DNA from: Escherichia coli
Lineage (GTDB): Bacteria > Pseudomonadota > Gammaproteobacteria > Enterobacterales > Enterobacteriaceae
DNA length: 64,000 bases
Reading direction: 5' to 3' (one strand)
Assembly (NCBI RefSeq): GCF_024700885.2
Contig: NZ_CP117016.1
In this document: positions 15,387 through 40,787 of the stretch, piece after piece
Layout: each line of letters begins with the position of its first letter
Position numbering within the stretch: the first letter of the stretch is position 1
Position numbers and translations under genes: made by a program
The notes under the pieces: model-generated
The model's input: the letters and a program-made list of their open reading frames with translations, nothing else
The model's database searches: none
What the model was told of the DNA's origin: nothing

Positions 15387-15848
15387 TCATGCTGCCGGGC
15401 TTTGTCCCTTTACCAGTTGGCTTAAATTCACCGGCACATTGTTTTCAATGGCGGTGTATAAGCTGTCGTAAACGCCAGCGATTTTTTCGAGATAGTGTTC
15501 CAGAACCTGTTCGCGATCGCGGATGTTGACCTTGCCATCAATCATGCCGTCAATGCTCAGTTGCGCCTGCGCAATCCGCTGTTTGTCTTCACCATCTTTT
15601 GTTTCGACGTAATACTCGATGGTGTGGCTGTTAAAGCCATCCGCCAGGGTGACGTAAATGCGAAAATGTTCAAAAAGGACGAAACAGAGTTCTTTGTCCG
15701 GCGCGCAGCTCATGGCGTGATGCAGGCGCGCTTTCGATAACGTGATCCCCTGAACCAGCGAATTGCAGTAGATGTGCCACTGGTCCTGTAGGCGACGATG
15801 CCGCTGTGCGATGTAATCGGCTTTCTCGCTTATTTCCCAAATAGTCAT
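15387..15848 (-). CDS. hycA: Formate hydrogenlyase regulatory protein HycA
   Basis: 153-aa ORF, first gene of the hyc operon, divergent from hypA. Confidence 0.9.
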   Translation of the reverse strand: MTIWEISEKADYIAQRHRRLQDQWHIYCNSLVQGITLSKARLHHAMSCAPDKELCFVLFEHFRIYVTLADGFNSHTIEYYVETKDGEDKQRIAQAQLSIDGMIDGKVNIRDREQVLEHYLEKIAGVYDSLYTAIENNVPVNLSQLVKGQSPAA

Positions 15849-22340: not shown

Positions 22341-22685
22341 TTATTTCTTTGGACGATATTTTTCTGGCAACTCCGGCACCGGACGCTTGTCATCGATGAG
22401 ATGACGCACGGTTAAGATCGGATGACGCCACAGCATTCTCGGCCCGGCCCAACGCATAATCTGTTTCATCTCTTCACGCTTTGCAGGCTGGTAACAGTGC
22501 ACCGGACACTGCTTACAGGCTGGTTTCTCTTCGCCGAACACACATTTATCCAGCCGCTTTTGCGCGTAGGCAAACAGCGCGTCGTAATGCTCCGGCTCCG
22601 CTGACGCCTGCGGGCATTTCGCTTGATAAAGATCGATCATTTTTTTAATCGTCAGTTTTTCACGAGAGATACGCTTGCCGGACAT
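22341..22685 (-). CDS. ygbA: Cysteine-rich small protein YgbA
   Basis: 114-aa ORF with several Cys pairs, in the conserved position between fhlA and mutS. Confidence 0.85.
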   Translation of the reverse strand: MSGKRISREKLTIKKMIDLYQAKCPQASAEPEHYDALFAYAQKRLDKCVFGEEKPACKQCPVHCYQPAKREEMKQIMRWAGPRMLWRHPILTVRHLIDDKRPVPELPEKYRPKK

Positions 22686-22971
22686 GCTGCCTCCACCTCA
22701 TTAAGATGCATTTATATTACAACTTAATCTTAAAGGGCACTATGACTCTAAAGAAGAAGGGTTCGCCAACTGATACAATTTTGCGTACTTGCTTCATAAG
22801 CATCACGCAAAAGCTGCAAAACAGCATCTTTCCCGGAATCACCATCAAGAACTCGCCGTTCGCTTCTTCCCCTGAAATGATTAACTCCGGTATCATGTGC
22901 GCCTTATGTGATTACAACGAAAATAAAAACCATCACACCTCATTTAATATCAGGGAACCGGACATAACCCC

Positions 22972-23021
22972 ATGAGTGCAATAGAAAATTTCGATGCCCA
23001 TACGCCCATGATGCAGCAGTA
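22972..23021 (+). pseudogene. mutS: Orphaned original 5' end of mutS (first 17 codons, [17 protein letters not shown]) displaced by the island
   Basis: Sequence encodes the native MutS N-terminus as I recall it and then diverges abruptly into AT-rich island DNA; the frame ends after 17 further island codons. Confidence 0.8.
22999..23021. repeat. Left copy of the imperfect direct repeat flanking the island (attL candidate)
   Basis: CATACGCCCATGATGCAGCAGTA; 19 of 23 positions match the right copy at 40836-40858, with an identical ATGATGCAGCA core. Confidence 0.65.
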
Positions 23022-23079
23022 CCATTTTTCTATGGTTAACCTGTTGAAATTTAGCAATAAAGTGTTTGGTAAGTAGACT

Positions 23080-23100
23080 CTGGTTTACTGATGGTATACA
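23080..23100. repeat. Tandem CTGGTTTAC / TGGTATACA motifs at the island left end (candidate integrase arm-type sites)
   Basis: The same TGGTATAC/TATACCAG motif recurs three times next to the integrase gene at the right end. Confidence 0.4.
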
Positions 23101-23365
23101 TAACATATAGTTATGTTAGCCAAGAACTCGAACTTAATGTGCCTAACTACAGAATGAAAAGTAACGTTGCGATACCGAAAAAATTTGGTGGCGTAAGGAA
23201 GGAATTGAAGTTCATTCATCTCCGTGAATATCTAAATCAATTTAATAACCAATTAAATAATTAGCTGGCTACAAATAACATTGATCTAATTCAATAATTT
23301 AGGATTATGTATTGGAGCTATTGAAAAAGTTGTGTTATAAAGGAAAAAAATCAAGGGAGATTAAA

Positions 23366-23635
23366 ATGTCTATCGATATCAATAAGTTAAAATCAAAATT
23401 AATTGAAGATTATAAATTCGCTGACGAGATTAGCGATGATGAAATCAATATAGTTTTAAGTGAAATACACAAAAAGGGTGCCTCAACACCAAAAGAAGTA
23501 GACGAAATTGTCTATACGGTATTAGAGGGTAAAAGGCATTATGCTTTCGAAAGTCTGGATACATCCAATACTACATCCCTTGCATTACAGTTAATTCAGG
23601 CGGCAAAGGTATATGCTCAAACACAAGGAAGATGA
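23366..23635 (+). CDS. Hypothetical small acidic protein
   Basis: 89-aa ORF from an ATG preceded by GGGAG; AT-rich island DNA; no recognisable motif. Confidence 0.45.
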   Translation: MSIDINKLKSKLIEDYKFADEISDDEINIVLSEIHKKGASTPKEVDEIVYTVLEGKRHYAFESLDTSNTTSLALQLIQAAKVYAQTQGR

Positions 23636-24401
23636 AAGCATTCACATAGAGAGTAAAAAAAAACTTGATATGGAATTGCAGTTTTTAATAGATGAGATGC
23701 AAGCTGGGAAGGATAAAAACACTATTCTTCCACTGTTGAATAAACTGCAATTACAGTTTTCGATCTATGTTACTGATTTTGAAAATTTCATCGTTCGAGT
23801 TTCAGAAAATGGGTATTATCGTTCAAAAGGTGAAATAAAAGATGTTTTAATTAGCGTAGAAAATTTTTTAAATTCAAATGCAGTTGTTGCAGAAGCAATA
23901 AATACAGTTTCAAGCATATTCAATTTACCCCAATGTTATCAAGAAGGAAATTTCATAACAACTGCTCAAATAATATTAAGAACACATCAGAAAGAAAAAG
24001 CCGAGGAATTATCTCAAATTTATAAGGATAAAGGATTATCAACAAATGGCTTTGATAGTAAAGAAAAAATTTATTTGAACAGACACGGGTTTGATATGAC
24101 CAGATTTATTTCGTTTATATTAGGATTAATTTGTATACTTTATTTTTTATATGAATACAATATAGGCAATATAAACAATGGTATAAGTTGGTTTAATTAT
24201 AGATTGTTTGTTCCAACTGGATTAGGAGCAATAATATTTTCACTATTTCCGACAACCATGCAATTAAAATTTAGAGCAGGAGTGACAGCCACTGGAATTG
24301 TCGCATTTATTATATTTTTTTATACTGTCAATCCAGCAAAAGTTCCTGATTTTCAACTTCATAATATTGATAGCAATCAATCATCAGAAAAAAACAACTG
24401 A
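23613..24401 (+). CDS. Hypothetical protein, soluble N-terminal domain with C-terminal transmembrane helices
   Basis: 262-aa ORF overlapping the upstream ORF by 23 nt; three hydrophobic helices in the last 90 residues. Confidence 0.5.
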   Translation: MLKHKEDESIHIESKKKLDMELQFLIDEMQAGKDKNTILPLLNKLQLQFSIYVTDFENFIVRVSENGYYRSKGEIKDVLISVENFLNSNAVVAEAINTVSSIFNLPQCYQEGNFITTAQIILRTHQKEKAEELSQIYKDKGLSTNGFDSKEKIYLNRHGFDMTRFISFILGLICILYFLYEYNIGNINNGISWFNYRLFVPTGLGAIIFSLFPTTMQLKFRAGVTATGIVAFIIFFYTVNPAKVPDFQLHNIDSNQSSEKNN

Positions 24402-24448
24402 TATCCAAGCGGATATCAGTTTAGATCTTAAAAGGAAAAAAATCCAAA

Positions 24449-24943
24449 GTGAAATTTATAGCATATGCGTTCTTGTCATTTACTATCGCACCAATAATTG
24501 GCATAATTATTGGAATTCCATTTGATAAATACTTACTCAAAAACTATCCAGTAGTTCTTTTCACAGTAATAATTATTTTCTCGTCCTTAGGAATCTACTC
24601 TCTTTACTTGTATAAAAAATCATACAAATATGTTAATGATGCTGTTTTAGCTATCTTTACTGGTTGGGTTGCATTGACATACTTACTCACGGGAGAAAAA
24701 ACAAGTGAGATAATCCCCTCGGAGAAACTAATTGAAACACACCCATTAATGTATTATCTAATAATATTAAAATTAACTATTGTTGCAAATGGGCTTTTGG
24801 CTAAGATATTTATTACATTAAACGAATTATATCATGCTCGTAAAGCTGAAAACAAAAGTGGGAAATATACTGATGTTTTAAAAATGACTATTTCCAGCAT
24901 TAAATCTTTTTTTAATTCTCAGAAGGACGGAGTCAAAAAGTAG
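24449..24943 (+). CDS. Hypothetical polytopic membrane protein
   Basis: 164-aa ORF with GTG start and about four hydrophobic helices. Confidence 0.45.
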   Translation: MKFIAYAFLSFTIAPIIGIIIGIPFDKYLLKNYPVVLFTVIIIFSSLGIYSLYLYKKSYKYVNDAVLAIFTGWVALTYLLTGEKTSEIIPSEKLIETHPLMYYLIILKLTIVANGLLAKIFITLNELYHARKAENKSGKYTDVLKMTISSIKSFFNSQKDGVKK

Positions 24944-25153
24944 AACAACCCCCATAGGAATTATTAATGCATTCATTGAAATAATAGCAGCAAAAACCAC
25001 TGCTAAATAATCATTCTTTGTGTCATAAAACAAAAACACAACAATATTTAAAAATAACACAAAGAGATAAAAAAGCATATCTTTAATATTCATAACAGCC
25101 TCCTTTTTTCTAATTTGATAATTTACAAATATCTTAATATAACGAAAAGTCAA
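24878..25153 (-). CDS. Hypothetical small membrane protein (uncertain)
   Basis: 91-aa hydrophobic ORF; its 3' end overlaps the preceding plus-strand ORF convergently, so one of the two may be spurious. Confidence 0.3.
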   Translation of the reverse strand: MTFRYIKIFVNYQIRKKEAVMNIKDMLFYLFVLFLNIVVFLFYDTKNDYLAVVFAAIISMNALIIPMGVVLLFDSVLLRIKKRFNAGNSHF

Positions 25154-25244
25154 CTTACCCGATAAAAAATAGTTATTAGAACACCTTAAACTGATAATTA
25201 CATTAATAAATGCGAGTGATGAAATTTTTGAGTGAGATCATAAA

Positions 25245-25568
25245 TTGTTGAGGCGTAAAGTTGTTGATATACCTGCTGTTCTGGTAAGTACTGCCATAAT
25301 AAAGGGCTGGTCTCCATCTGGTTTACTGCTTATATTTGTAGCTATGCTACTTAAGTGCTCTGTCGTTATATTGGGTATACATAATGCCCAAAAATCATTA
25401 TCGGATATTATTGAATCATCTAATAAGACGATGATTTTATTCACGAAAGATAATGCCAATGATGATGACGAAGCATTAACCAACCGTATTAATCAGATCA
25501 CAACCGAAGCTTTAACCAAACTCAGTAATAAAAAAGTTGATGCTGAAAAAACCTTGAATAAGCTCTAA
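25245..25568 (+). CDS. Hypothetical membrane-anchored protein (uncertain start, TTG)
   Basis: 107-aa ORF with one hydrophobic segment; an alternative 81-aa ORF exists on the opposite strand. Confidence 0.3.
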   Translation: MLRRKVVDIPAVLVSTAIIKGWSPSGLLLIFVAMLLKCSVVILGIHNAQKSLSDIIESSNKTMILFTKDNANDDDEALTNRINQITTEALTKLSNKKVDAEKTLNKL

Positions 25569-25876
25569 TGGTTGATTTTCATTGGTGTATCAGTCTGGTC
25601 TATGTTTGTTTTATATCAATTCAAAGATAACATAATCCCAGTTATTGAATTCGCCTATGAGCATATAAAGAGTTTCGTTACTTATTTATTAAGCAAGGGC
25701 TAACTCATCGAAGCTCCGCTTCTTTGAGTTCCCTTGTTTTTCGCCCTTCGGTTGAAAAAGAAAGTCAAAGTCTAACCTAACTCATTGACATGAATTGCAT
25801 TTCCACTATAAATATATAATGTGTTGCAAAGGAATTGCTTACTTTAAAGCGAATAAAAATATAAAAAGGAGTTTAT

Positions 25877-26260
25877 ATGGGTAAAATAATAACATTGTCG
25901 TATACAAATAATTTTAAGCCTATTAGCGATAATAAATCTCAATCATTGCGAATACACTGTGTAAGTGTACGATTAAATAAAGAAGAGTTAGAGCTTCTCA
26001 ATGCAAGCCGTGGTGATAAACGCAAAGGTGAATGGCTTCGCATGGCATCACTTCAAAAGCTTCCTCCGACCATTCCTACAATCAATTTAGAAGTTTGGCA
26101 ATCATTGTCTGATATATCTCAAAAGCTAAACCGTCTAATAATCCACCTTGATACTAAAAGCAGTAATAGTGAACTGACGAAAACAGAGATCTTCGCTGTT
26201 AAAAAGCAGATTAAAGAGCTTCGCTCATGTCTTACAGGTTCTGATCCGTCCGTAAGGTAG
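25877..26260 (+). CDS. MobC-like mobilisation (relaxosome accessory) protein
   Basis: 127-aa ORF with the MobC-type core HCVSVRLNKEELELLNA...GEWLRM, immediately upstream of a relaxase gene. Confidence 0.65.
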   Translation: MGKIITLSYTNNFKPISDNKSQSLRIHCVSVRLNKEELELLNASRGDKRKGEWLRMASLQKLPPTIPTINLEVWQSLSDISQKLNRLIIHLDTKSSNSELTKTEIFAVKKQIKELRSCLTGSDPSVR

Positions 26261-26268
26261 TTATTCGC

Positions 26269-27450
26269 ATGAAAGGAATGCAGAAGATCAAAAGGGGTAA
26301 GAGCTTCTCAGGTGTGGTTCTCTATGTGTTAAAGCCAGGCTCACACCATAGAACCGTTCCAGAAGTAATTGGTGGCAACATGACAGGTGATTGCTCACAA
26401 GAGTTAATCGACGAATTTAACCTTACGAAAGAGCTTCGCTCAGATGTGGCAAAACCTGTTTGGCACAATTCACTTCGATTACCCCAGGGAGAATCTCTTA
26501 CCAACGAACAATGGAAACGAATTGCTGACGATTACATGAAGCGAATGGGGTTCGGTGATACACACCTCCGTTGCTATGTTCTTCATGATGATCAGGCTGG
26601 TCAGCACATACACATTATTGCAAGTCGCATAGATCTCAATGGCGGGAAGCTCTACTTGGGTAGGAACGAAAACCTCATCAGCACCCGCATAATCAGTGAA
26701 CTCGAATTCGCTCATGGTCTGACAGTGACCAAGACAGCCTCTTCAATTGCACCAAAGCAACCGAAGCGGAAGAGAATCTCTCGCAACGAACAGATGCTAT
26801 CAGAACGAACTGGTGTTCCCTGCCCCAAGAAGTCCCTTCAACAGATCATAGATAAAAGTTTGGCAGATACACCTGACCTTTTAACTTTTATCAAGAGGCT
26901 GGAAGAAGCAGAAGTAGGCTGGACGGCGAATGTCGCAAGCACAGGTAAAATGAACGGGTTCTCTTTCGAATACACAGGAATAGCTTTCAAAGCTTCCCAG
27001 TTAGCCAAGAGCTATTCATGGGCAAATCTTCAAAAGCAGCTTAACTACAACCCGGATCACTTAGAAGCTCTGCGAAAGGATATACAGACCAAGGAAGTTC
27101 CTGCTCCTGTTCCTGTTCCTGTTCCTGTTCCTGTTCCTGTTCCTGTTCCTGTTCCTGCAGAACCGATAGCAAGAACGGCCGCCCAGATCGAAAGCATAAG
27201 TGAAAAAATTGCCGAACTGGAACTACGACTCAAAGAAGACAGAAGAAACGAAATCGTAGAAAAGATTCTTCAAAAGAATGCAGCCAAACAGCAAAAGCAT
27301 CTCAGGCTCACCGGCTGGATTCCCTTTTTACAACGGCTCATAGAGCTTCTCAGAAAATATGGAAGGAGCATCCTCCACAAGGTTCCTACAAACTTCTTAG
27401 AAGTCTATTCAACCCATCATCTGAAACCTACAAGAAAAATTCGTTTATAG
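26269..27450 (+). CDS. Mobilisation relaxase (MobA/VirD2-like nuclease domain) with internal (PV)n linker
   Basis: 393-aa ORF with N-terminal Tyr region (GVVLYVLKPG) and HDDQAGQHIHII three-histidine motif typical of relaxases. Confidence 0.75.
   Translation: MKGMQKIKRGKSFSGVVLYVLKPGSHHRTVPEVIGGNMTGDCSQELIDEFNLTKELRSDVAKPVWHNSLRLPQGESLTNEQWKRIADDYMKRMGFGDTHLRCYVLHDDQAGQHIHIIASRIDLNGGKLYLGRNENLISTRIISELEFAHGLTVTKTASSIAPKQPKRKRISRNEQMLSERTGVPCPKKSLQQIIDKSLADTPDLLTFIKRLEEAEVGWTANVASTGKMNGFSFEYTGIAFKASQLAKSYSWANLQKQLNYNPDHLEALRKDIQTKEVPAPVPVPVPVPVPVPVPVPAEPIARTAAQIESISEKIAELELRLKEDRRNEIVEKILQKNAAKQQKHLRLTGWIPFLQRLIELLRKYGRSILHKVPTNFLEVYSTHHLKPTRKIRL
27100..27153 (+). repeat. In-frame hexanucleotide tandem repeat (CCTGTT)n, nine units with seven perfect, encoding a Pro-Val/Pro-Ala linker
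   Basis: CCTGCT-(CCTGTT)x7-CCTGCA read directly inside the relaxase ORF. Confidence 0.9.
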
Positions 27451-27702: not shown

Positions 27703-27981
27703 ATGAATAACGAAACCATTAAGTGTCCGTTCTGCTTCAAAGAGAGCCAGTTTGGTGTCCGTGTTTGTACCGGCTGTCATTCAACCATCAAATATGGCGA
27801 AGTTTCACCTTGGTTATCTTTACTAATAGGATTTATTTTATTAGCCATTGCTTACATCATACTTTATATAAGTCAAAGTTTTTTAGTAGCTCTCGTTATT
27901 CTTTTAACATTAATGATTTCTACAAGATTGTATATTCGTAAAAAATTTGCACACAGAGCAGTTTTCACTCACCAACATTAA
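27703..27981 (+). CDS. Hypothetical zinc-ribbon membrane protein
   Basis: 92-aa ORF with CPFC...CTGC at the N-terminus followed by two hydrophobic helices. Confidence 0.45.
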   Translation: MNNETIKCPFCFKESQFGVRVCTGCHSTIKYGEVSPWLSLLIGFILLAIAYIILYISQSFLVALVILLTLMISTRLYIRKKFAHRAVFTHQH

Positions 27982-27999
27982 GAACAAAAGGGATTTAAC

Positions 28000-28314
28000 A
28001 TGAAAGCATATGCTATGCTAACAATCATTCTTTCTACTTTTCTATTAACTGCATGTAATAGTGAACCAAGTCAAGATGATATCTACAATGCATTCAAAAG
28101 TGTTGTAGATAAAACCAATGCCAGCATGAAAGCTTTTGATTCAAGAGTGTCAGAAAAAGACCTTTTAAAAATCGATTATGTAAAAAAAGTAAGCTGTTCG
28201 GAAGAAGCAAACAATGTTTACAACTGCATTGTCGATGCTTCTATTAGCAACAATAAACAGACGAAACCAATTAAATTAGTTAAAGCTGATGGTGTCTGGA
28301 AAGAAGTTCAGTAG
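28000..28314 (+). CDS. Hypothetical lipoprotein
   Basis: 104-aa ORF with signal peptide and lipobox (LLTAC) at the N-terminus. Confidence 0.5.
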   Translation: MKAYAMLTIILSTFLLTACNSEPSQDDIYNAFKSVVDKTNASMKAFDSRVSEKDLLKIDYVKKVSCSEEANNVYNCIVDASISNNKQTKPIKLVKADGVWKEVQ

Positions 28315-28894: not shown

Positions 28895-29308
28895 TTATTT
28901 TTTGTTTTTGGGAAAAATTTGATCTTCTCTAATACATTTACCATATGCAACCATTTGAAGATCTCTAACCATAAGTAGAAGCCTGTTATTTTCACTAACT
29001 AACCTCGAATTTTCTGTTTCTAATTTACTGATTTTATTCGAAGCATAGGCAAGACTTTGAGGACTTTTAATATGCTTAACAGTTTCACCTTTAGTTCTCT
29101 TTTTCTGCTGATATGCATAAGCTATTACTGTATGTCTTGAAAGAGCCTGTCTCGTTGGTTTTTTACCGAAATGATCCTCTACGGAATCACAAAGACTGAC
29201 CCAAGTTAAATCGCCTTCCCAGCCATTTATTTTATCGAGAACGAATTCAATATCTTCCTTGTTAAACTTTTTACTCATTATGTTCTCCTCTAAGATAATA
29301 ACTAACAA
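28895..29308 (-). CDS. Small coiled-coil protein co-operonic with the recombinase trio (real start possibly MSKKFNKED at 29278)
   Basis: 137-aa ORF overlapping the stop of the upstream recombinase; C-terminal heptad-like KISKLETENSRLVSENNRLLLMVRDLQ. Confidence 0.5.
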   Translation of the reverse strand: MLVIILEENIMSKKFNKEDIEFVLDKINGWEGDLTWVSLCDSVEDHFGKKPTRQALSRHTVIAYAYQQKKRTKGETVKHIKSPQSLAYASNKISKLETENSRLVSENNRLLLMVRDLQMVAYGKCIREDQIFPKNKK

Positions 29309-30917
29309 TATGATTTATAATTTTACTAACTTCTTGGATTTCCTTTTCAACATAATTCGCTTTCTGTGAATTATATTGGCTTCTGTATAAATTATTCTTT
29401 TCTTCAAGCGTTTGTAAATGGTCTTTAATTTTGCAAATAATATCATCCTTACTCCCTCCACCTAAATCAGAAATCATTTCATCAGCAAATAATACTCTTC
29501 GTTCGTTTTGTCGCAACTCCTCCCAAGTTCGGTTATCATACACATTATTTTGTTCAACATTTTTCCTCCCTGACCAAAAAGCTATTTCTATATCAGAGAG
29601 CATAGCTCTTTGAGCAAGAGTGTTTAAAAGATGTCTTGGCTGATGACTACTAAAAATCTCTTTCATACCATTGGGTTGTAATGTTTTATGTCGTTGAAAA
29701 AAATTTAAGGTAGTTTCTTTTTCTGACCTTTTTTTAAAATCAGCAATAAACATCTTTTTATTTGCGGGTAAGACACAGAATAAATCAATTCCTTTCTTTA
29801 AATGTAATTGATCTTTATTTAGGATTAACAATCTATTACTAAGGTTTATAGATTTTGAAAATTCATCCCAAGATTTTGTTTTATCGCTATAATTAAAAAC
29901 TTCATTCCAAAATTCTTTTGCACTAAGAATCCCACTCTCTACCCTCATTAATATATTTTTAGTTTTAACATTGAAGCAGTCCATACAGTTTAGATTTAAA
30001 AGCTTATACAACTTTGTATGAAAATATCGTCCATTCTCATCAGTCTCTAAACTCTTATAAAACTCCAATTCTCCTTTTTCTCGTAGGGTAGCTATGCACC
30101 TTGCCGTTTGTGATAATACCCTTAATCTTTTAATGGCTAATTTTGCTATTGAATGCATATTCCTTGGAATCCACTTTATACTTTCACCATAGCCTTTTGC
30201 ACTATGATAACGAATGCCATAGGAGCCTTTCCCCTCTATGTCGTTCCCTTCAACTTCACAATCCACCTCAAGACTCAGGACTTCTGATATTCGTGTTGGA
30301 GCACAAAGAAGCAGTGCGATGATAGATGTTGTAAATATATCTCTTTGGCTTTTATCATTAGAACTAAAAACCCTACCAACAAGATCTATGACTTCCTCTT
30401 CTGGTAACTTATTTTTAATTTCTTTTTGCCCTATAAGATCTCTTACAGCTTTATTTCTAATTATTCTAAGCCTGGAGTTAAACTTACTTAATTTTGGATT
30501 TATTATGTTATTTATAGCTAACACTTCTAAAATATTCTTTAATGCCTTTTCAATAGCCCCCGCACGACTATTAGAATATTTCTTTTCTACTTGGAATAAA
30601 ATGTTGTTGATAACCTCAGAATTAATATTAACAATATGTGGTTCTACATTCAAAGTGAAGAATGAACTTTCCATAATTTTTATGACCGCCAAATAAAGTA
30701 ATGATTTACTGAGATTAGGGAAACACTCTCTATATATAATAACCTTTGATAATTGTTGAAAATGCGCTCCCATGTCTTTATCTTTTTTTATATGATTGTT
30801 ATTTTTAAATGAAACCCCTCTACCCCATGACAAATCATCCCAATTTATAATATTTTCTTTTTTTGCCTGTATCCTTACTTCATTAGCTAAAACATCATAA
30901 TTATTATAATGACTCAT
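29271..30917 (-). CDS. Tyrosine recombinase family protein (third of three tandem paralogues)
   Basis: 548-aa ORF; candidate catalytic residues in order: R in CAPTRISEVLSL, HQPRHLL (HxxR), W in FWSGRK, Y in NNVYDNR. Confidence 0.6.
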   Translation of the reverse strand: MSHYNNYDVLANEVRIQAKKENIINWDDLSWGRGVSFKNNNHIKKDKDMGAHFQQLSKVIIYRECFPNLSKSLLYLAVIKIMESSFFTLNVEPHIVNINSEVINNILFQVEKKYSNSRAGAIEKALKNILEVLAINNIINPKLSKFNSRLRIIRNKAVRDLIGQKEIKNKLPEEEVIDLVGRVFSSNDKSQRDIFTTSIIALLLCAPTRISEVLSLEVDCEVEGNDIEGKGSYGIRYHSAKGYGESIKWIPRNMHSIAKLAIKRLRVLSQTARCIATLREKGELEFYKSLETDENGRYFHTKLYKLLNLNCMDCFNVKTKNILMRVESGILSAKEFWNEVFNYSDKTKSWDEFSKSINLSNRLLILNKDQLHLKKGIDLFCVLPANKKMFIADFKKRSEKETTLNFFQRHKTLQPNGMKEIFSSHQPRHLLNTLAQRAMLSDIEIAFWSGRKNVEQNNVYDNRTWEELRQNERRVLFADEMISDLGGGSKDDIICKIKDHLQTLEEKNNLYRSQYNSQKANYVEKEIQEVSKIINHIVSYYLRGEHNE

Positions 30918-32274
30918 TATTCATGCCCTCCTTGTTGAGCAATTCGATTATTTTATTTATTTTACATTCTAACATTGTGAATAAGTCCGTTAGGATTTCA
31001 AAGTCTGCTTGCTTCGTATAATCTGCTATTAATACTCCAGTAAGCTTTTTTATGATTATCAAATCGTCAACCAATCTAAGGGTAATGTCGTCACTGTTTT
31101 TTAAAAATGAGGAAATATAAGGGCTTACTAACTCATTTATTGCCTGATCTATTCTGAATGAAAACTCTTCATTGTTTTTTGCATACGACAATACTGATTT
31201 CAAATTGCTATGATCTAAAGCTTTTGCTATCGTACCTAATCCATAACCTTTAAGTGCAAGCCTTGTGGCTAATGTAACCCTAAGTTGCCGAGAGTTAATC
31301 TTTTTATTTTTATCTTTACTTACCCTTTGGCAAATGGCCTGAACCCTACCGGTTATCCTCTTAGAACTCATATGCAAATTGAAGAAGTTATTTTCATATA
31401 ATTTATCAAGTTTGTAAGTCGAGTTAAAAAAACAAGGATCAATAAAGAGGGGTAAATTGTTTAATTCATCTTCACTTAATATATCGCCTACCTCACCCTG
31501 CACAAAAACCTTAACTACTGATTTAAGCTCTGATAGTGAATTGAACAAATTATCCCCTATACGCAATTCGGAAAAATCAGTTCTGAAACTATCTCCTTGT
31601 TTTAATCTGGGTATGTTTAAAAAATTACCATTTTCTTTGATATAAAGATCCTTCCTTTTTAATTGAGCGATCTGCATTGGTCTTCGCCCCGAATATATCA
31701 TCAGCATGACTAAAAGGTAGTCATTCATAGTCATATTTCCATCATTGTATTCCTTTGTCATGCCCCCAATTAGGTTCTTCAGTTCGTATTCAGATAATGG
31801 TCTTAAAGACTCTTTTCGCTCAATATATGCAGTTGTCTTGTTGGGTTTAGTTACTTTCCATTTTAAAATCAAATCCAGCATTTCTTGATCTATGAATTCA
31901 TTATTTAACTCATAATGTTTTATTATAAAATACTTTAAACTTTCAACATGTGTATAGCTTATTTTATAATATGCATTGTAAAATCTATTTAGTAATCCAT
32001 AGTCAAATTTGTCCAACTTCCCTTGATTAAAAACAACGAGTTTTTTTATAGAAAAGAAAAACTTTCTCGCATAAGCTGAACTAAAATTCACAGCAGTATA
32101 GGCAAGGGTCTCTTTTATAGATGCTAATAAGATAGCATTAATGTTTCTTTCAAAATATGAGAAATTTAATTTAACATCTTTGCTGAGAAACCAAACACTA
32201 TCATGTAAACTAAAATTATTTCTGCTGTCTTTTGCCTTTAATACCAAGTAATTTTCTAACATTAATGCTTTCAT
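30904..32274 (-). CDS. Tyrosine recombinase-like protein with degenerate catalytic motifs (second of three)
   Basis: 456-aa ORF; SGRRPMQIAQL (box I Arg), SRQLRVTLATR, LDHSNLKSVLSYAKN; overlaps both neighbours. Confidence 0.5.
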   Translation of the reverse strand: MKALMLENYLVLKAKDSRNNFSLHDSVWFLSKDVKLNFSYFERNINAILLASIKETLAYTAVNFSSAYARKFFFSIKKLVVFNQGKLDKFDYGLLNRFYNAYYKISYTHVESLKYFIIKHYELNNEFIDQEMLDLILKWKVTKPNKTTAYIERKESLRPLSEYELKNLIGGMTKEYNDGNMTMNDYLLVMLMIYSGRRPMQIAQLKRKDLYIKENGNFLNIPRLKQGDSFRTDFSELRIGDNLFNSLSELKSVVKVFVQGEVGDILSEDELNNLPLFIDPCFFNSTYKLDKLYENNFFNLHMSSKRITGRVQAICQRVSKDKNKKINSRQLRVTLATRLALKGYGLGTIAKALDHSNLKSVLSYAKNNEEFSFRIDQAINELVSPYISSFLKNSDDITLRLVDDLIIIKKLTGVLIADYTKQADFEILTDLFTMLECKINKIIELLNKEGMNNESL

Positions 32275-33508
32275 CTATTTCTCCTTCAATTTTATTTATG
32301 ATTTCTTGATTCACTAAATCTGCCTCTTCAAAAGCTTTTAAAGTTTCTTCACTAATATAACGATTGTTATAAATCAAAGCCGTTTTGGAGTTCATTTTCC
32401 ACCCCATTCTTACGCATCTGATTCTATCTAATTGGGTCAATCTATATTGATCAGTGACTCCTATGTATTTTAAACTGTAAATATAGTTCCATGTGTGCCG
32501 TAGACAATGCCCTGTGAAATTTTGAAAAGATACTCCATTGAATTCAATTCTACTTATTTGCTTAATTACTTTATGATATGCACTTATTGACAGAGGAAAT
32601 CCTTCCGTAGGACCAGATTTTTGAGTAATAAATAAGTAATTATGATTTAAGCTTTTCGAATAGAAAGACCTATCATTGTCTATATATGAAGAGATTTGCA
32701 TAGACAATTTTTTGCTAATATTTAATTCTCGTTCAAATGTTTTAACAAGTGGTTGAAAAACTCTTGGGTCTGCTGGATCATTTATTCTTTTACAAACTTT
32801 CAGATATCTTTTTTCCTTGTTAAAATCAGTAATTTTCAAGTTCAATAGCTCACCCCCTCGCATTCCAGTTTCCTGAAGAATGAGGATTATGAGTTGATTT
32901 CTTTTACGGCAACTGATATCAACAAATGGATTGTATTGGCTTTCAGGTTCTATACATTGCAATAGAATGTCTAAGCTTTCTTTTTCTAATGATTTAAAAT
33001 CATTATTCAAATAGAATTGAGAGTTTAATTTTGGTTTATGTTTACGAAAAAGCAAACTAACACTTTTTGATATAATGTTTGTCTCATATATTGTAGTGCT
33101 AAAATATGATTCATAAATCCAAGAAATGTAGGAACTAATTACTGTCAATCTATAATGAAGATTTTCTTGATTGATCTTTTTATACTCTTTTATATCTATA
33201 ACTTTTTGTTTTTTATTTTTAACTCTAAGTTGTTCTGACAATGAATAGATTTCAGTAAAGCTAAGGAAGGTCTTAGATCTAATTCTTTCGATAAGATTTA
33301 TATTTGATTCTATTAGATAATTTTCAAAAGCAATCAAAGTGTAAGCATTTCTCAATACTGTATTAAATGACTTATTCTTTTGCTTATATAGCAAACTAAG
33401 ATATATATTTTGATAATACAATGGCAAACCGTTTTTTGAATCCAAAATCATACAAAATCTGCTTCCATCACTCGCCATTAACTTCTTTACTGAATATCTC
33501 CTATTCAT
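32216..33508 (-). CDS. Tyrosine recombinase family protein (first of three; start set at MNRRYSVKKL after a GGGGTGA RBS, ORF extends to 33547)
   Basis: GMRGGELLNL (box I Arg), HCLRHTW (HxxR), GWKMNS, ALIYNNRY (Tyr) in canonical order. Confidence 0.65.
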   Translation of the reverse strand: MNRRYSVKKLMASDGSRFCMILDSKNGLPLYYQNIYLSLLYKQKNKSFNTVLRNAYTLIAFENYLIESNINLIERIRSKTFLSFTEIYSLSEQLRVKNKKQKVIDIKEYKKINQENLHYRLTVISSYISWIYESYFSTTIYETNIISKSVSLLFRKHKPKLNSQFYLNNDFKSLEKESLDILLQCIEPESQYNPFVDISCRKRNQLIILILQETGMRGGELLNLKITDFNKEKRYLKVCKRINDPADPRVFQPLVKTFERELNISKKLSMQISSYIDNDRSFYSKSLNHNYLFITQKSGPTEGFPLSISAYHKVIKQISRIEFNGVSFQNFTGHCLRHTWNYIYSLKYIGVTDQYRLTQLDRIRCVRMGWKMNSKTALIYNNRYISEETLKAFEEADLVNQEIINKIEGEIDESINVRKLLGIKGKRQQK

Positions 33509-33626
33509 TATCACCCCATAATTTATTTTTTTATTTATAGGTAACATAATTTTTTAGCAAGTTACAAATTTATTTGCTATTATTTTCAATGACCTTATTA
33601 CTCGCGACTCTAATAAAGAATCGGCC

Positions 33627-33680: not shown

Positions 33681-33757
33681 GCGGTAGTAGTTCAGTTGGT
33701 CAGAATATTCCCCTGTCACGGGAATGGTCGTGGGTTCGAGTCCCATCTATCGCGCCA
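33681..33757 (+). tRNA. tRNA-Asp (anticodon GUC), foreign island-borne copy
   Basis: Manual cloverleaf: acceptor GCGGTAG/CTATCGC, D stem GTTC/GAAT, anticodon stem TTCCC/GGGAA with loop CUGUCAC, T loop TTCGAGT, 3' GCCA; differs from my recollection of the host tRNA-Asp. Confidence 0.8.
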
Positions 33758-33761
33758 GAAA

Positions 33762-33836
33762 GGGCAATTAACTCATTGGTAGAGTGTATCTCTTACAAAG
33801 ATATGGCGGTTGGTTCGATTCCAACATTGCCCACCA
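33762..33836 (+). tRNA. tRNA-Val (anticodon UAC), foreign island-borne copy
   Basis: Manual cloverleaf: acceptor GGGCAAT/ATTGCCC, D stem ACTC/GAGT, anticodon stem TATCT/AGATA with loop CUUACAA, T stem GTTGG/CCAAC, 3' ACCA. Confidence 0.8.
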
Positions 33837-33847
33837 AAACATAAAAT

Positions 33848-33917
33848 GCGTCAGTATTTCAATGGTAGAATAAAACATTGCCAATGTTTAGGTGAGGGTT
33901 CGATCCCCCTATATTTA
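33848..33917 (+). pseudogene. Degenerate tRNA-like sequence with a Gly (GCC) anticodon arm
   Basis: Intact anticodon arm AAACA-TTGCCAA-TGTTT and a T-loop-like GGGTTCGATCCCC, but the acceptor strands GCGTCAG and ATATTTA cannot pair. Confidence 0.4.
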
Positions 33918-34712: not shown

Positions 34713-36560
34713 TCAACCTTGATAATCTTCAGCCTCGATACCACAATAAGTTATCATGTTTGTTATTAACGGTATATCATTACAATTCTGCTTGAAAGAC
34801 CTGCCATAACTATTGTTTCTTATTTTACAACGAGTCATTAATACTTCTTCAATGGCTCTTGAAAATGCCACAAAGACTGTTTTTTGATTTTCTATTTGCT
34901 CTTCTTCTTTACCAAAATAGGCACCAGGTTCAAGCCCCACAACGATGACCTTCCTGAACTCTAACCCTTTACTTTTATGGATGGTCATAAGAGGTATTGT
35001 TTTATTGCCAAGTAATAAATCAATGGCTTCTGATGTGTTTTCTTTTACATCTAACTTATCGAGGTGGCGAGAAAGTAATTCTATGCTATATTCTAAAACA
35101 TTCCCACTCATATACTGCGGAAAGTAAGACTTTATTTTATCGACACCAAATATACTTAATAATGAATATAAATAATCGACAATTTCTCCTTTAATTACCC
35201 GATGAGATTTAATAAACTGGCTAAGTTCTTTTTCTAACCGTGTAACATCACCTCTTTTACTTACTCCTCTTATATTACATAGAAGCTCCATTGTAGTGGC
35301 CCAGCTTTCTATGGATTTTCTATTACAGACAAACATTAGCATTTGTAAAAGTAACTGTACTACAGCTTCATTTAAAAGATCCTGATACTCGTTCTCAAGG
35401 CGACATTGTATTTTCAAATATTGCAATGCTGAAATGATATCGTCTGTATATTGTTTAGCCGGGTTTCTTAGCAGTATACATATATCTCTTTCATTTACTC
35501 CTTCAGCAATCCATTGCTGGATACATAATGCTATATATGCCCCTTCAATACTACTTTCGTCAAATTGTAGTAACTTAGCTGAACCTTCATTTTCAATCAA
35601 CATCATATCAGGCTTTATATCAGCATGATTCATGAAAGCTTCCATCATGCGTTGATAATTTATGAGGTTTTTTAATGACCTTCTATTGCTAACTAATTCA
35701 TTAGATTGTTCGATTCCAAAATCTTTTTTAAACACATCAAAAGCATTGTGCATTGCACCTGCCCAACCCATTATTCTTTGTTTTGTATCACCGACTGCTG
35801 TTATTTTTATTTTTTTACCCAAGAAAATGCTCTTAAAAATCTCATATTGCCTATATGTTGTGTCCTGAAACTCATCGATAAAAGCATAGTCATATGTTGA
35901 ATTTATAGCATTAGATAAATATTGATTCCTACTAATAATATAATTAGCAAGAAAATTAATCATCTTGAATGAAATCCTTGATTTTGGTTTTAATAAGTGT
36001 AACCACACAAACCGTCTTATCCTGCCATCAACAGAATGTTCTAATGCTTTATTATAAGGAGTTACTATATAATTCTCTTCAAAATTATAAGGTTGTAATT
36101 TATTTAATTCTTCAGATGTTAAACCTTCAAAGCCTACGGCCTCTCTTTTAATTTCTTCAACTAAATCATTATTATTTGGAAAGATTATTTCATAGTCATT
36201 TGATGGACGATAAGATTCCGGAATAGTGCTTTTAAAGCGATCAACAATACTTTTACAGAATGCATCAAATGTTGTTGATTCAAATTTGTGTCTATATTTT
36301 GTATCAAGCCGTGAGTTTACTCTATCTTGAAGATTTTTGGCCGCATCTTTTTTAAAGGATAATGCAATTATTTTTTTATTGCTGCATTTTCCTGTCTCAA
36401 TCAAGAAACAAGCTTTCTGAGCCAATAATTCTGTTTTACCTGCACCGGGACCAGCAAGAACGAGATTATGCCCTGTACTATTTCGAATTACCCTCATAGC
36501 CTCGTCTTCTACTTCTTGGATATCCTTTAAAACCCAATCGGCATCTTTAATAGTCGGCAT
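34713..36560 (-). CDS. gajB: UvrD/PcrA-like superfamily 1 helicase, Gabija GajB-like
   Basis: 615-aa ORF with Walker A (LAGPGAGKTELL), DEFQDTT motif and C-terminal HKSKGLEF motif; start codon shares one nucleotide with the upstream ATPase stop. Confidence 0.65.
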   Translation of the reverse strand: MPTIKDADWVLKDIQEVEDEAMRVIRNSTGHNLVLAGPGAGKTELLAQKACFLIETGKCSNKKIIALSFKKDAAKNLQDRVNSRLDTKYRHKFESTTFDAFCKSIVDRFKSTIPESYRPSNDYEIIFPNNNDLVEEIKREAVGFEGLTSEELNKLQPYNFEENYIVTPYNKALEHSVDGRIRRFVWLHLLKPKSRISFKMINFLANYIISRNQYLSNAINSTYDYAFIDEFQDTTYRQYEIFKSIFLGKKIKITAVGDTKQRIMGWAGAMHNAFDVFKKDFGIEQSNELVSNRRSLKNLINYQRMMEAFMNHADIKPDMMLIENEGSAKLLQFDESSIEGAYIALCIQQWIAEGVNERDICILLRNPAKQYTDDIISALQYLKIQCRLENEYQDLLNEAVVQLLLQMLMFVCNRKSIESWATTMELLCNIRGVSKRGDVTRLEKELSQFIKSHRVIKGEIVDYLYSLLSIFGVDKIKSYFPQYMSGNVLEYSIELLSRHLDKLDVKENTSEAIDLLLGNKTIPLMTIHKSKGLEFRKVIVVGLEPGAYFGKEEEQIENQKTVFVAFSRAIEEVLMTRCKIRNNSYGRSFKQNCNDIPLITNMITYCGIEAEDYQG

Positions 36561-38548
36561 TAAAGTAATCCTCTTACTGTTTCGATAATTTCATTAAGAA
36601 CTTCAGGACTATCATCTCTTAACTTATCGTCTTCCATTTTTGATAGAACATAATTGTGCGATAATGGTTTACCTCTTCCTAAAAATAGGTAACGATACCA
36701 AAAATATTTTTCATAATCATCGAACTCACTAATATCAATATCTTTCTCTTCTTTTTTCAAAACTGCAGCAATTGCCGATTTAACTTTATTATCATATTCA
36801 TGATCGTCATCTTTTGGCAATCTTGGCCCACCATTTTTGGGAACAAATGTCTTATAATCCTCAAAGAATTTATTAAGCATTAGCCAATCTAAATCGTAGG
36901 GGTAAGAAAAATAAACATTATAATCTTTTAGACAATTAATCCATGCCGATTCATTATCTTGATCCTCATCCCATGTATGCATTTTTTCAAGCTCTTCATC
37001 ACTTAAAGTTCCTGAAGTAATACTTAACAATTCATTTTTATCTGCACCTATAGATATTAATTGTTTGACTGCATATTTAATTCTTCCCCAACCACCACCT
37101 CCTCCTCTCTTGAAATCATAGTCGAGAAGAGTCACATGTGGAATTGAAAGCTCATTGAGTAACTTCCAAAAATGATTAACATATCGCCCTCCTAATGGAG
37201 CAAATGTTATCAATGAAGTGTCAAGCTCTATACCATTTACTTGAGCTATTTTAGGTATTACTATTTCTTCGCTATCACCTTCACCAAGTATTACAACTTT
37301 TGCAAAATAAATTTCTGGATATGCCTTCACTGCTTCTTTTACATAAGTGAAAGTATCAACATTGTCTCCATCGTCTTCATCTTCGCTTGGTAATAATATT
37401 GGTTTGACAACAGTATTTTTATTATCATGTAGACGAAAATACCTTATATTTTCTGGTTCTACTCTATTGAGTAATGAAGGTGCGTGTGTTGTTAAAACAA
37501 CCTGTGCTCGATCATTCTCAGATATATCTTCACATAGTTTAACTATTCTTCCTAAATATTGGGGTGAAAGATGATTTTCTGGTTCTTCGATTAATATTAT
37601 CGTTAAATTTGGAGGATCTAATGCTTCTACTGATATTGATAATTCATTTTCTCCTGAATTAATGATCTCATCTTCAATATCAAATGCAGATTTGACTAAC
37701 GAAAGATAAAACAATGACTTCATACCATCACTCAATCTTTCAGTTGGTAATGGCTGAGTCACCGGAGTAGGCATAAATACAGTATCTATATGCTTTAATA
37801 CATCTTCTATTCCATTCATTACTGGCTGAATTTTAAGCTGTTCAAAATACCCTCCGCTAAAAAGAGTTTTCCAATTTCTGCCCAATGAAGATGTTATTGT
37901 CTGAACCCCAATTTCTTCTTGGAACTGGTTTCCGATTGATTCTGCAACCTCATCAACCGTTGAACTCATCTGTTCAGACCATTCAACTGCATTTATCAAA
38001 CGGTGCATGATGGTTCCGGCTGTTTGCTTCAGTTGTTGAGCAGGATCGCGATAAGCAGGGACATAATGAACATGGATTTTTGATCTTTCATATGCTGTAA
38101 TATTTTTTTCATATTCTCCTATTTCCCATACTAAATCACTATCTATATCCCCTTCTGCAAGATTAGTTTTTGTCCATTTAGCTTTTAATTTTGCTATACA
38201 GTATGGGATCTGGTCTGCTTCATTTGAGACCAAATGCTTAAAGAAATCAGCGACTGAATCGTCCTCACCATCTTGCAGATCTGCAAATTCAAATTTTACA
38301 CGAACTGATAATTCTCTTTCATCTTGAGTATCGATTTCATCTCCAGGAGGAACATAAAAATCATCAACTTGAACAATTCTATCGGAGCTTTTGACACCAA
38401 ACATCCTTGTCAATGCGAGGAGAACAGCCGTCTTACCTGTTCCATTCCCTCCAATTAAGCTGGTGAATGAATTTATATTTATAGTTTGCCCTACATTATC
38501 AAAGCTCTTAAAACCTTTGATCTCCATTTGTGTAATTTTCATTATCAC
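36560..38548 (-). CDS. gajA: OLD-family ATPase-TOPRIM nuclease, Gabija GajA-like
   Basis: 662-aa ORF with ABC-type Walker A (LIGGNGTGKTAVLL), Walker B and H-loop region (IILIEEPENHLSP) and a C-terminal TOPRIM-like VVILGEGDSEE. Confidence 0.65.
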   Translation of the reverse strand: MIMKITQMEIKGFKSFDNVGQTININSFTSLIGGNGTGKTAVLLALTRMFGVKSSDRIVQVDDFYVPPGDEIDTQDERELSVRVKFEFADLQDGEDDSVADFFKHLVSNEADQIPYCIAKLKAKWTKTNLAEGDIDSDLVWEIGEYEKNITAYERSKIHVHYVPAYRDPAQQLKQTAGTIMHRLINAVEWSEQMSSTVDEVAESIGNQFQEEIGVQTITSSLGRNWKTLFSGGYFEQLKIQPVMNGIEDVLKHIDTVFMPTPVTQPLPTERLSDGMKSLFYLSLVKSAFDIEDEIINSGENELSISVEALDPPNLTIILIEEPENHLSPQYLGRIVKLCEDISENDRAQVVLTTHAPSLLNRVEPENIRYFRLHDNKNTVVKPILLPSEDEDDGDNVDTFTYVKEAVKAYPEIYFAKVVILGEGDSEEIVIPKIAQVNGIELDTSLITFAPLGGRYVNHFWKLLNELSIPHVTLLDYDFKRGGGGGWGRIKYAVKQLISIGADKNELLSITSGTLSDEELEKMHTWDEDQDNESAWINCLKDYNVYFSYPYDLDWLMLNKFFEDYKTFVPKNGGPRLPKDDDHEYDNKVKSAIAAVLKKEEKDIDISEFDDYEKYFWYRYLFLGRGKPLSHNYVLSKMEDDKLRDDSPEVLNEIIETVRGLL

Positions 38549-39195
38549 CTCAATTGCTGTTTTAAAAAATTATAATCACTAATTATTTCTGCGTTTGTAA
38601 TGATTTCTTGTGAGCACAGCTTAAAACATTCTAAAAATATATTTTTATTATCGTTATGTTCCCAATGTTTTTTCAAAGCTTCTTCAATTGAAATCCAAAT
38701 AACTTGAAAATCGTTATTAGATATTTGGCTTGTTAAAACTGTTTCTTCCACACAAAGTATATGCCCTAAGATGACATCATCGTATATGTCAGTATCTGAA
38801 TCTCTAACTCCTAACCTTTTTATTTTCCTTTTTTGGATGATTTTATTTTTAACAATAAAAGGATGTTCTTCTATAAAATCGGTCAATGATGTAAAAGCCA
38901 AGCCACGAACCTGAGCACCATGCATTGAACTATTTACTTTATGGATATCTCTCCAAACTCGCAGATCACCTAATACATAGAGAACCCGCTGATTTCTCGC
39001 TTTCGTATCTTCTGCTTGGTATTGGATATAAGGTGGCCCTCCCCCATTTTGTCTATATCGGGCAAGGGTTTTGATGCTTATGCCAAGAAAGACAGAAGCA
39101 AGCTCACTATTTACAGTGGCAGAATCAGGCATTTGACCAAATAGTTTCCATACCTCTGAATACTCCCGCAAAACTTCCACCACACTCATCTTCAC
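38545..39195 (-). CDS. Uncharacterised protein with an N-terminal HTH-like motif, translationally coupled between the integrase and the ATPase (possible true start at ATG 39189)
   Basis: 216-aa ORF; ELASVFLGISIKTLARYRQNGGGPP resembles excisionase/AlpA-type HTH; its start overlaps the integrase stop and its stop overlaps the ATPase start (ATGA). Confidence 0.5.
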   Translation of the reverse strand: MKMSVVEVLREYSEVWKLFGQMPDSATVNSELASVFLGISIKTLARYRQNGGGPPYIQYQAEDTKARNQRVLYVLGDLRVWRDIHKVNSSMHGAQVRGLAFTSLTDFIEEHPFIVKNKIIQKRKIKRLGVRDSDTDIYDDVILGHILCVEETVLTSQISNNDFQVIWISIEEALKKHWEHNDNKNIFLECFKLCSQEIITNAEIISDYNFLKQQLR

Positions 39196-40655: not shown

Positions 40656-40660
40656 CGATG

Positions 40661-40716
40661 TATACCAGTGGTTCAAGTGTGTATACCAGATAGTAGCTAG
40701 AATACTTCTGGTATAC
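40661..40716. promoter_or_regulatory. Three copies of TATACCAG, including a 10-bp inverted repeat GTATACCAGA...TCTGGTATAC, between the integrase start and mutS
   Basis: Read directly; candidate integrase operator or arm sites, overlapping a possible -10 (TAGAAT) for the rewired mutS. Confidence 0.5.
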
Positions 40717-40787
40717 AAATTTATGGGTTTATGTGAGTTTAAAGGGGTATCACTTGGGGCCACATAAGTACTCAGAAGACTTTAAAA

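Follow-up and report, generated by a model that had tools for sequence, protein, structure and literature searches.

A candidate two-gene membrane defense pair and the remnant of a PANGU-like system at the left end of a mutS island in Escherichia coli

Gene content at the left end of the island

At the left end of a genomic island in Escherichia coli lies a small group of open reading frames (ORFs), designated here A, B, C and D, which is joined by an unannotated ORF on the minus strand and by a 43-amino-acid (aa) ORF directly behind D (Table 1). The stretch analyzed is 64,000 nt of the E. coli chromosome, hereafter called the window, and all coordinates without a locus name refer to its full length. 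The queried 3.6 kb is identical to E. coli strain MLI114, where RefSeq annotates all four of ORFs A, B, C and D as hypothetical proteins, and the cluster is present in two of 5,426 complete E. coli genomes. A reading of the window from the sequence alone (the sequence-only reading) had placed four to five uncharacterized ORFs at this island end, downstream of the displaced native mutS promoter. That placement agrees with the mutS stub, the attachment (att) core and the rebuilt mutS, all of which can be read from the sequence, and the descriptions given of the proteins were accurate: A is small and acidic, B combines a soluble N-terminal domain with C-terminal transmembrane (TM) helices, and C is polytopic. 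The count needs amendment in part. ORFs A, B and C stand, and the minus-strand ORF is a probable fifth gene, but D and the 43-aa ORF are pieces of one broken gene, which is 419-427 aa long in relatives.

The cluster is a composite: the A-B pair is autonomous, ORF C is dispensable, and to these are added the small minus-strand ORF and what is left of a PANGU-like system, now dead. We consider it moderately probable that the region is a cargo cassette with two separate modules, namely a membrane defense pair encoded by A and B and a dead PANGU/DS-1-like system. The sequence-only reading had guessed at a membrane-acting abortive-infection or exclusion module on a defense island; the context favors that guess, given the other cargo of the slot, the neighborhoods of A-B homologs and the origin of ORF D, but the genes do not form one module.

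The reality of the frames was gauged against 2,000 shuffles of the 30.5%-GC (guanine plus cytosine) region. No open frame of at least 164 or at least 262 codons, the sizes of C and B, arose in any of them, so both of these ORFs exceed chance. For A, D and the minus-strand ORF, frames of equal size should arise 0.29, 0.07 and 1.3 times per shuffle, respectively, and the status of these three therefore rests on conservation. Purifying selection was detected on A, B and C: against two relatives that differ by 6-25% in DNA, the ratio of nonsynonymous to synonymous substitution rates (dN/dS) lies between 0.15 and 0.35, with values of 0.26-0.35 for A, 0.17-0.19 for B and 0.15-0.16 for C.

ORFs A and B as the conserved unit

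In every copy the cassette begins at the left att core, the point from which homology among all the other copies also starts, and follows the order A (89 aa), B (262 aa), C (164-173 aa), small minus-strand ORF, NA37 (364 aa) and X (414-427 aa). It was found in three backbones: relaxase-bearing elements of a three-integrase type (the window, L007 and L018), a P4-type integrase island of Proteus mirabilis (L019 and L020) and a shrunken remnant beside mutS in Pectobacterium aroidearum (L004-L006). Five of five cassette lineages have both A and B intact. C has decayed in two of the five, through a 2-nt insertion in Pectobacterium and through a stop codon, a 1-nt deletion and a 12-nt deletion in Proteus, and NA37 and X have been lost from the window and from Pectobacterium. 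Since only A and B remain intact throughout, the A-B pair is the unit under selection. Of the Pectobacterium island (L004 9385-13306) about 3.9 kb remains, flanked by 25-bp direct repeats at mutS, and it has neither integrase nor relaxase; apart from a MobC fragment and a frameshifted ORF C it keeps A and B, which are its sole intact genes.

The pairing extends to distant relatives of B. In all 12 contexts available, a small gene (61-109 aa) lies immediately upstream of the B homolog and abuts or overlaps it, and wherever DNA could be inspected the small proteins are homologous to A and have the motif F-E-S-x-D-x-S-D/N in common. The two families are also similar in size: B has 31 representatives, clustered at 50% identity, and A has 32 clusters when the threshold is 90% identity. 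Neither C nor NA37/X accompanies the distant pairs. Housekeeping operons, the setting that the sequence-only reading had named as speaking against its own guess, are not among the 12 contexts.

Predicted structure of the two proteins

The structural model of B, built from 28 family sequences with a mean predicted local distance difference test (pLDDT) score of 85.3, consists of an N-terminal three-helix bundle (residues 4-102), a helical linker (residues 116-139) and three TM helices (residues 162-184, 190-211 and 226-239). Within the family, G146-F147 and N240-P241 are invariant and R197 is nearly so. The positive-inside rule, applied to the loop charges, suggests that B resides in the inner membrane with its N-terminus inside and its C-terminus outside, and the helical bundle would then be cytoplasmic. 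The relatives of B were collected at E <= 0.001 in an exhaustive search over 1.84 billion representatives; nearly all are 240-280 aa long, and two carry C-terminal extensions of about 150 aa.

Structural and sequence comparisons place B among proteins that have no assigned function. Foldseek against AFDB50 returned uncharacterized members of the same family only, including B4F2N8 of Proteus HI4320 at 94% identity, and in PHROGs B matches phrog_5814 (E 2.5e-10), a family of unassigned function. Weaker matches to Cry toxin domain I and to AhlB point toward a membrane effector. The B-family profile found nothing meaningful among PDB sequences at E <= 10, and a Foldseek search of PDB with a linked A-B model found nothing at E <= 0.001. 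By hhalign, the B family has no relationship to the Ec48 2TM effector, to protein X or to ORF C, and a tblastn search of plasmids gave one marginal match.

ORF A shares its last 23 nt with the start of ORF B. Its product is predicted to form four helices, the most confident of which comes after the conserved motif, which itself lies ahead of the last helix. The 32 clusters of the family are all 46-107 aa long and unnamed, and none of 10 members examined (80-109 aa) has a Pfam match at E <= 0.001. The segment 'ESLDTS' in A resembles 'DSLDT', the site found in acyl carrier proteins. An acyl-carrier-like role for A was considered and rejected: no PP-binding match to Pfam was found in the 10 members, and the motif stands ahead of the last helix, not the second. 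In one distant locus (L017 5057-6330), two tandem ORF A paralogs of 88 and 87 aa, 31% identical to each other, precede a single B homolog.

ORF D is the tail of a dead PANGU-like effector

What is annotated as ORF D is no independent small membrane protein; it is the TM tail left behind by a PANGU-like effector that is now dead. From 23008 to 25273 the window is colinear with the metagenomic locus L007 at 89.5% identity; homology resumes at 25269, and 1,988 bp of L007 (11660-13647) are absent from the window. In L007 the lost segment encodes NA37, a 364-aa NA37/YejK-like protein, and the first two-thirds of X, a protein of 419-427 aa. ORF D and the 43-aa ORF together align to X residues 270-419 with 89% identity, and the sequence '...TLNKLQWLIFIG' of L007 corresponds to '...TLNKL*WLIFIG' in the window. 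Against the NCBIfam models, NA37 of L007 matches DS1_1_antiphage, a nucleoid-associated anti-phage protein (NF053868; E 5e-63, 213 bits, curated cut-off 330), and X matches DS1_2_antiphage (NF053869; E 5.8e-36, 124 bits, curated cut-off 315).

DS-1 was described in the DefensePredictor study, in which the YejK nucleoid-associated domain is among the newly validated defense domains. According to a 2026 preprint, the sensor of PANGU is a nucleoid-associated protein that leaves the nucleoid once this is degraded and switches on an effector; the type II effector, Pag2B, joins an N-terminal DNA-mimic domain to a C-terminal TM domain, and in PANGU-Ecu both Pag2A and Pag2B are required for abortive infection. 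X has the layout of Pag2B and follows the YejK-like NA37 gene, and it is the TM part of X that the remnant in the window matches. In the window, unlike in type II PANGU, the sensor gene and the N-terminal domain of the effector are deleted and the rest is interrupted by a stop, so that no system remains. The YejK-like sensor gene (Pag2A/DS1_1) is present in L007, L018 and L019 and absent from the window, and PANGU activity would not be expected after its deletion. A, B and C fall outside the PANGU/DS-1 family.

It could be argued that A, B, C, NA37 and X constitute a single five-gene system, in which case it would be wholly dead in this strain. Such a system would account for the movement of the block A-B-C-(small ORF)-NA37-X as a unit among three backbones, both of the GInt/relaxase kind (L007, L018) and of the Proteus P4 type (L019, L020). 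We nevertheless judge it highly improbable, since NA37/X is missing beside at least seven of the distant A-B pairs, the published type II PANGU defends with its two genes alone, and in the two lineages from which NA37/X has been deleted, the window and Pectobacterium, A-B is still complete and subject to purifying selection.

ORF C and the minus-strand ORF

To judge from the sequences compared, ORF C is a lineage-specific, dispensable accessory gene, the homologs of which form four clusters among 5.8 billion proteins, all of them inside the cassette. A weak Pfam match to the pore region of Ion_trans (i-E 0.0053) is the sole basis for the idea that its product is a minimal ion channel; beyond this match, no NCBIfam or Pfam family was matched by A, B or C.

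The minus-strand ORF is probably a fifth real gene. Gene callers report it in Pectobacterium, L018 and Proteus, and it is intact in the window, L004 and L018, reshaped in L019 (Proteus) and frameshifted in L007. It converges on ORF C and overlaps the 3' end of the latter by 66 nt, and a transcript from it would run antisense to the whole of ORF C. The hairpin at the stop codon of ORF B, with its T-run on the minus strand, could terminate such minus-strand transcripts after they have passed from the small ORF through the antisense of C.

Neighborhoods of A-B and the possible action of the pair

The distant A-B pairs lie in varied surroundings. In Proteus/Morganellaceae the pair is found with a type II-A retron reverse transcriptase (RT) plus NDT and an OLD/AriA-like ATPase, in an island on the smpB side and also beside a prophage integrase. 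Another pair belongs to an island with Hachiman (HamA/HamB) and DarT, another (L017) to one with AbiJ, PDC-M62A, an MmeI-like methyltransferase (1,299 aa) and the duplicated A, and another to a P4-type integrase island. One pair lies within a prophage: upstream of it, in the same orientation, are the CI repressor and a 391-aa gene, and downstream are convergently oriented tail genes. The retron RT and NDT, the OLD/AriA-like ATPase, HamA/HamB, DarT, AbiJ and PDC-M62A were confirmed with PADLOC.

From these observations we infer that A-B is a candidate autonomous two-gene defense system that acts on membranes. The pair would act at the inner membrane, with B as an effector anchored by its three C-terminal helices and its bundle facing the cytoplasm. 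Translational coupling through the 23-nt overlap could keep A in a fixed proportion to B, and A may bind the cytoplasmic domain of B as a sensor or as a brake. Infection would alter this interaction and allow B to oligomerize, whereupon oligomerized B could permeabilize or depolarize the membrane and so abort the infection. In its enterobacterial version the pair would have ORF C and the small minus-strand ORF as optional accessories.

The same gene layout can be read in another way. A small acidic upstream gene that overlaps a larger one, strict co-occurrence of the two (12 of 12 contexts) and persistence in decaying elements are all reminiscent of type II toxin-antitoxin systems, and A-B could be an addiction module that stabilizes mobile elements, with B as a membrane toxin, A as its labile antidote and no dedicated role against phages. 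Survival of A and B as the last intact genes of the decayed Pectobacterium island is what would be expected of genes whose loss kills the cell. We regard this reading as unlikely, as A has no DNA-binding or known antitoxin domain, Pfam, NCBIfam and PADLOC place B in no toxin family, and a toxin that spans the membrane several times would be unusual for type II. Placement behind a prophage CI repressor and in islands with several defense systems also fits defense better than stabilization alone, although many toxin-antitoxin systems themselves defend, and to that extent addiction overlaps with the defense role proposed here.

Constitutive exclusion at the membrane, by which B would stop entry of a phage genome or of competing conjugative DNA without killing the cell, is in our view a clearly unlikely alternative to an abortive A-B system, even though several features of the pair could be cited for it. 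By prediction, B stays in the inner membrane permanently and has a periplasmic tail, to which the long C-terminal extensions of two members may be added; a position downstream of CI in a prophage is typical of superinfection-exclusion genes; and in the GInt-type islands the pair adjoins mob genes. Known exclusion proteins are usually solitary, however, whereas A-B has an obligatory cytoplasmic partner, the conserved mass of B is mostly cytoplasmic, and the pair also occurs in islands without nearby transfer genes (L009, L012 and L017).

Several points weigh against a defense pair alongside a dead PANGU-like system. The sample is small, with about six independent lineages that have usable flanks, and recognized defense genes lie within about 5 kb in four of these. 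No catalytic or channel motif was identified in A-B, and tblastn of B and of its prophage-type relative P0010 against 50,697 phage records gave no match. The linked A-B model has a predicted template modeling (pTM) score of 0.51, compared with 0.67 for B alone, and mixed confidence in A; the divergences of A and B across the distant pairs are weakly correlated (Spearman 0.29, p 0.29, not significant). In our estimation, the linked model and the divergence correlation may be taken as evidence neither for nor against direct contact between A and B. Accessions of A-B-C were found neither in published full texts nor, which counts against a defense role, in the DefensePredictor tables available in text form. 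As for the dead module, the scores of NA37 and X lie under the NCBIfam cut-offs, so it is a relative of DS-1 and not an equivalog.

The island and its cargo slot

GC content drops from about 0.53 to about 0.30 across roughly 23.0-39 kb of the window, and this 30%-GC island interrupts the 5' end of mutS (Table 1). The native mutS start survives as a stub, so the native mutS promoter reads into the island. In the working mutS (from 40788, plus strand) the native start is replaced and the promoter and N-terminus are supplied by the island, which makes MutS expression in this strain dependent on island sequence. The 25-bp stretch that contains the att core occurs once in the window. In the conserved region upstream of ORF A, a sigma-70-like site was found at 23084-23111 (a consensus match only), and a GGGAG Shine-Dalgarno sequence precedes ORF A; a promoter-like site of the form TTGACA-17-TATAAA lies upstream of the MobC-like gene and the relaxase.

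Table 1. Positions of the genes and sequence features discussed, in coordinates of the window.
Feature	Position	Strand	Description
ORF A	23366-23635	+	89 aa, acidic, pI (isoelectric point) 5.06; small partner of ORF B
ORF B	23613-24401	+	262 aa; soluble N-terminal domain, three C-terminal TM helices
ORF C	24449-24943	+	164 aa; GTG start (ATG in L007); four TM helices; basic C-terminal tail
Minus-strand ORF	24878-25093	-	Unannotated; 71 aa, two TM helices, AAGGAGG Shine-Dalgarno
Pseudogene	25245-25703	+	C-terminal about 150 aa (TM region) of Pag2B/DS1_2-like effector
ORF D as annotated	25245-25568	+	TTG start; ends at CAA-to-TAA nonsense codon (25566-25568)
43-aa ORF	25572-25703	+	Same frame as ORF D, which it continues
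Deletion junction	25269-25273		5-bp overlap of two alignment blocks
Hairpin	24396-24421		Perfect 11-bp stem; covers ORF B stop codon; T-run on minus strand
Native mutS stub	22973-23077	+	First 17 codons, then island sequence to stop; 34-codon stub
Left att core, ATGATGCAGCAGTAC	23008-23022	+	Read from sequence; blastn homology start points in L007, L019 and L020
Conserved cassette upstream region	23024-23365	+	79-92% identity in other backbones
MobC-like gene	25877-26260	+	Backbone boundary of cargo slot
Relaxase	26269-27450	+	Backbone boundary of cargo slot
137-aa ORF	28895-29308		Small gene beside three recombinase-type ORFs
Three tandem recombinase-type ORFs	29271-33547	-	NCBIfam models: two match tyrosine recombinases
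GajB	34713-36560	-	Gabija, E 2.6e-198
GajA	36560-38548	-	Gabija, E 1.9e-240
Second integrase	39192-40763		523 aa; abuts mutS
Right att copy, ATGATGCAGCAATAT	40845-40859		Inside rebuilt mutS 5' end; read from sequence

The slot between the left end and mobC holds different cargo in sister islands: retron Ec48 (RT_IV plus 2TM_IV), in an island whose MobC is 98% identical, an HNH endonuclease, or an E1-E2/JAB system with a metallo-beta-lactamase (MBL)-like protein. The last of these is seen in E. coli E41-1 (L022 2290-6759), where a related backbone of mobC, relaxase and multiple integrases is inserted at ssrA, not mutS, and the slot encodes the E1-E2, JAB and MBL-like proteins and two hypothetical genes. 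The 'HNH endonuclease' (447 aa; L003 8485-9828, E. coli 02A16CRGN003) has no PADLOC match and could be another single-gene defense candidate. Directly to the left of the cassette in L007 (3905-8906) are an HxsD-like gene, two radical S-adenosylmethionine (SAM) genes, a 212-aa gene and a DUF6119 protein, followed by a UvrD-like helicase; this cluster may be another defense or peptide-modification system.

On the right of the slot, the relaxase contains a (Pro-Val)8 dipeptide repeat (27090-27140, plus strand), at the place of which the L007 relaxase has (Gly-Ala)n (about 15500-15560); the differing repeats indicate a variable low-complexity linker. Two small backbone genes beyond it (27703-28314, plus strand) are kept in the sister islands. 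One encodes a protein of 92 aa that begins with a CxxC...CxxC zinc ribbon and has two TM helices, and the second a 104-aa lipoprotein, at the position of which sister islands have a different lipoprotein gene, named 'SEN1984 family lipoprotein' by RefSeq in L003.

Among the recombinase-type ORFs, matches were obtained to integrase_1 (E 2.2e-65), to an XerA-like model (E 8e-12) and, weakly, to GmtY (E 2.4e-6); the third ORF (548 aa) has no NCBIfam match. Elements of the GInt/Tn6571 family have three tandem integrase genes with a small protein encoded next to them and are carriers of defense systems in E. coli (PMC10121019), and by the description given there the island appears to be of this mobilizable, three-integrase (GInt-like) type. 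Between the recombinase genes and the Gabija block, the low-GC DNA at 33681-33915 (plus strand) encodes tRNA-Asp(GTC) and tRNA-Val(TAC), and a further tRNA-like stretch lies at about 33848-33915, without an ARAGORN call. These tRNAs could be leftovers of attachment sites or spare tRNAs against anticodon nucleases. Gabija is complete on the same island, and a 216-aa ORF (38545-39195) that overlaps the start of GajA has no PADLOC or NCBIfam match.

Implications

If A-B is indeed an anti-phage system, it would be a compact one of about 1 kb, with an effector of a new fold family and a new kind of small partner. Many such candidates exist; this one is compact and well delimited, and both of its genes fit on one plasmid, which makes it easy to test. 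The cassette variants also offer a natural experiment: the PANGU-like system is intact in L007, L018 and Proteus and missing from this strain and from Pectobacterium, and it can be asked whether neighboring membrane-acting systems cooperate or merely stack. For annotation, the 'hypothetical protein' that RefSeq places at the position of ORF D should be relabeled as a fragment of a gene; on the minus strand, a small membrane gene has likely been missed. Finally, the slot between the left end and mobC is an exchangeable site of defense cargo and useful for finding further systems.

Comparison with known systems

In PADLOC-DB v2.0, with GajA and GajB of the same island as positive control, no family was matched at E <= 1 by A, B, C, D, the minus-strand ORF or the 43-aa ORF. 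Rfam gave no RNA family on 22600-26300. The GAPS systems of GMT islands contain other domains.

Retron Ec48 (type IV) occupies exactly the same slot in its sister island, and its effector is also a small membrane protein restrained by a partner. The window differs in that there is no RT ORF in 23000-25900 and, by Rfam, no msr/msd-like RNA, and the alignment of the B family with the Ec48 effector by hhalign has a probability of 0.1%.

The RexAB system of phage lambda consists of two genes, aborts infection and includes a membrane protein; it is expressed from the immunity region of the prophage, beside cI. A comparable position, downstream of CI, is occupied by one A-B homolog; the two systems are compared by description and no homology is claimed. 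Their proportions are reversed, in that the Rex sensor is large and soluble and its membrane protein small, with four TM helices, whereas in A-B the membrane protein is large and the partner tiny.

A further system with a comparable organization is JukAB (jumbo phage killer). JukB is the effector of this two-gene, sensor-plus-effector system and has been reported to form tetrameric pores on the early-infection vesicle of phages, while JukA is defined by the YaaW family, a Cbp3-like domain plus DUF3944 (Juk preprint). In both, a sensor would be paired with a helical, membrane-acting effector of about 260 aa, but A is much smaller than JukA and of a different family, and B is predicted to be permanently integrated in the membrane. 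Given this likeness, A-B might be a Juk-type system directed against the early infection vesicle of jumbo phages, with B as a JukB that has diverged. This we consider extremely unlikely: the B-family profile did not recover JukB among PDB sequences at E <= 10, and JukB is absent from the Foldseek list obtained with the linked A-B model against PDB. In addition, the 10 members of the A family (80-109 aa) have no match to PF03981 or PF13099, the JukA-type domains, nor to YaaW, Cbp3 or DUF3944, and the preprint mentions no transmembrane segments in JukB (0 occurrences), whereas B has three strong ones.

Taken as a candidate of its own, A-B may, as a tentative proposal, represent a new two-gene anti-phage family whose effector is a permanently anchored alpha-helical pore former gated by a translationally coupled, tiny acidic partner. 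The effector would be JukB-like or Cry-domain-I-like in kind, with no detectable sequence relation to either, and the family would spread among GInt-type islands, P4-type integrase islands, prophage immunity regions and classic defense islands in Enterobacterales, Pseudomonas, Campylobacterota and other groups.

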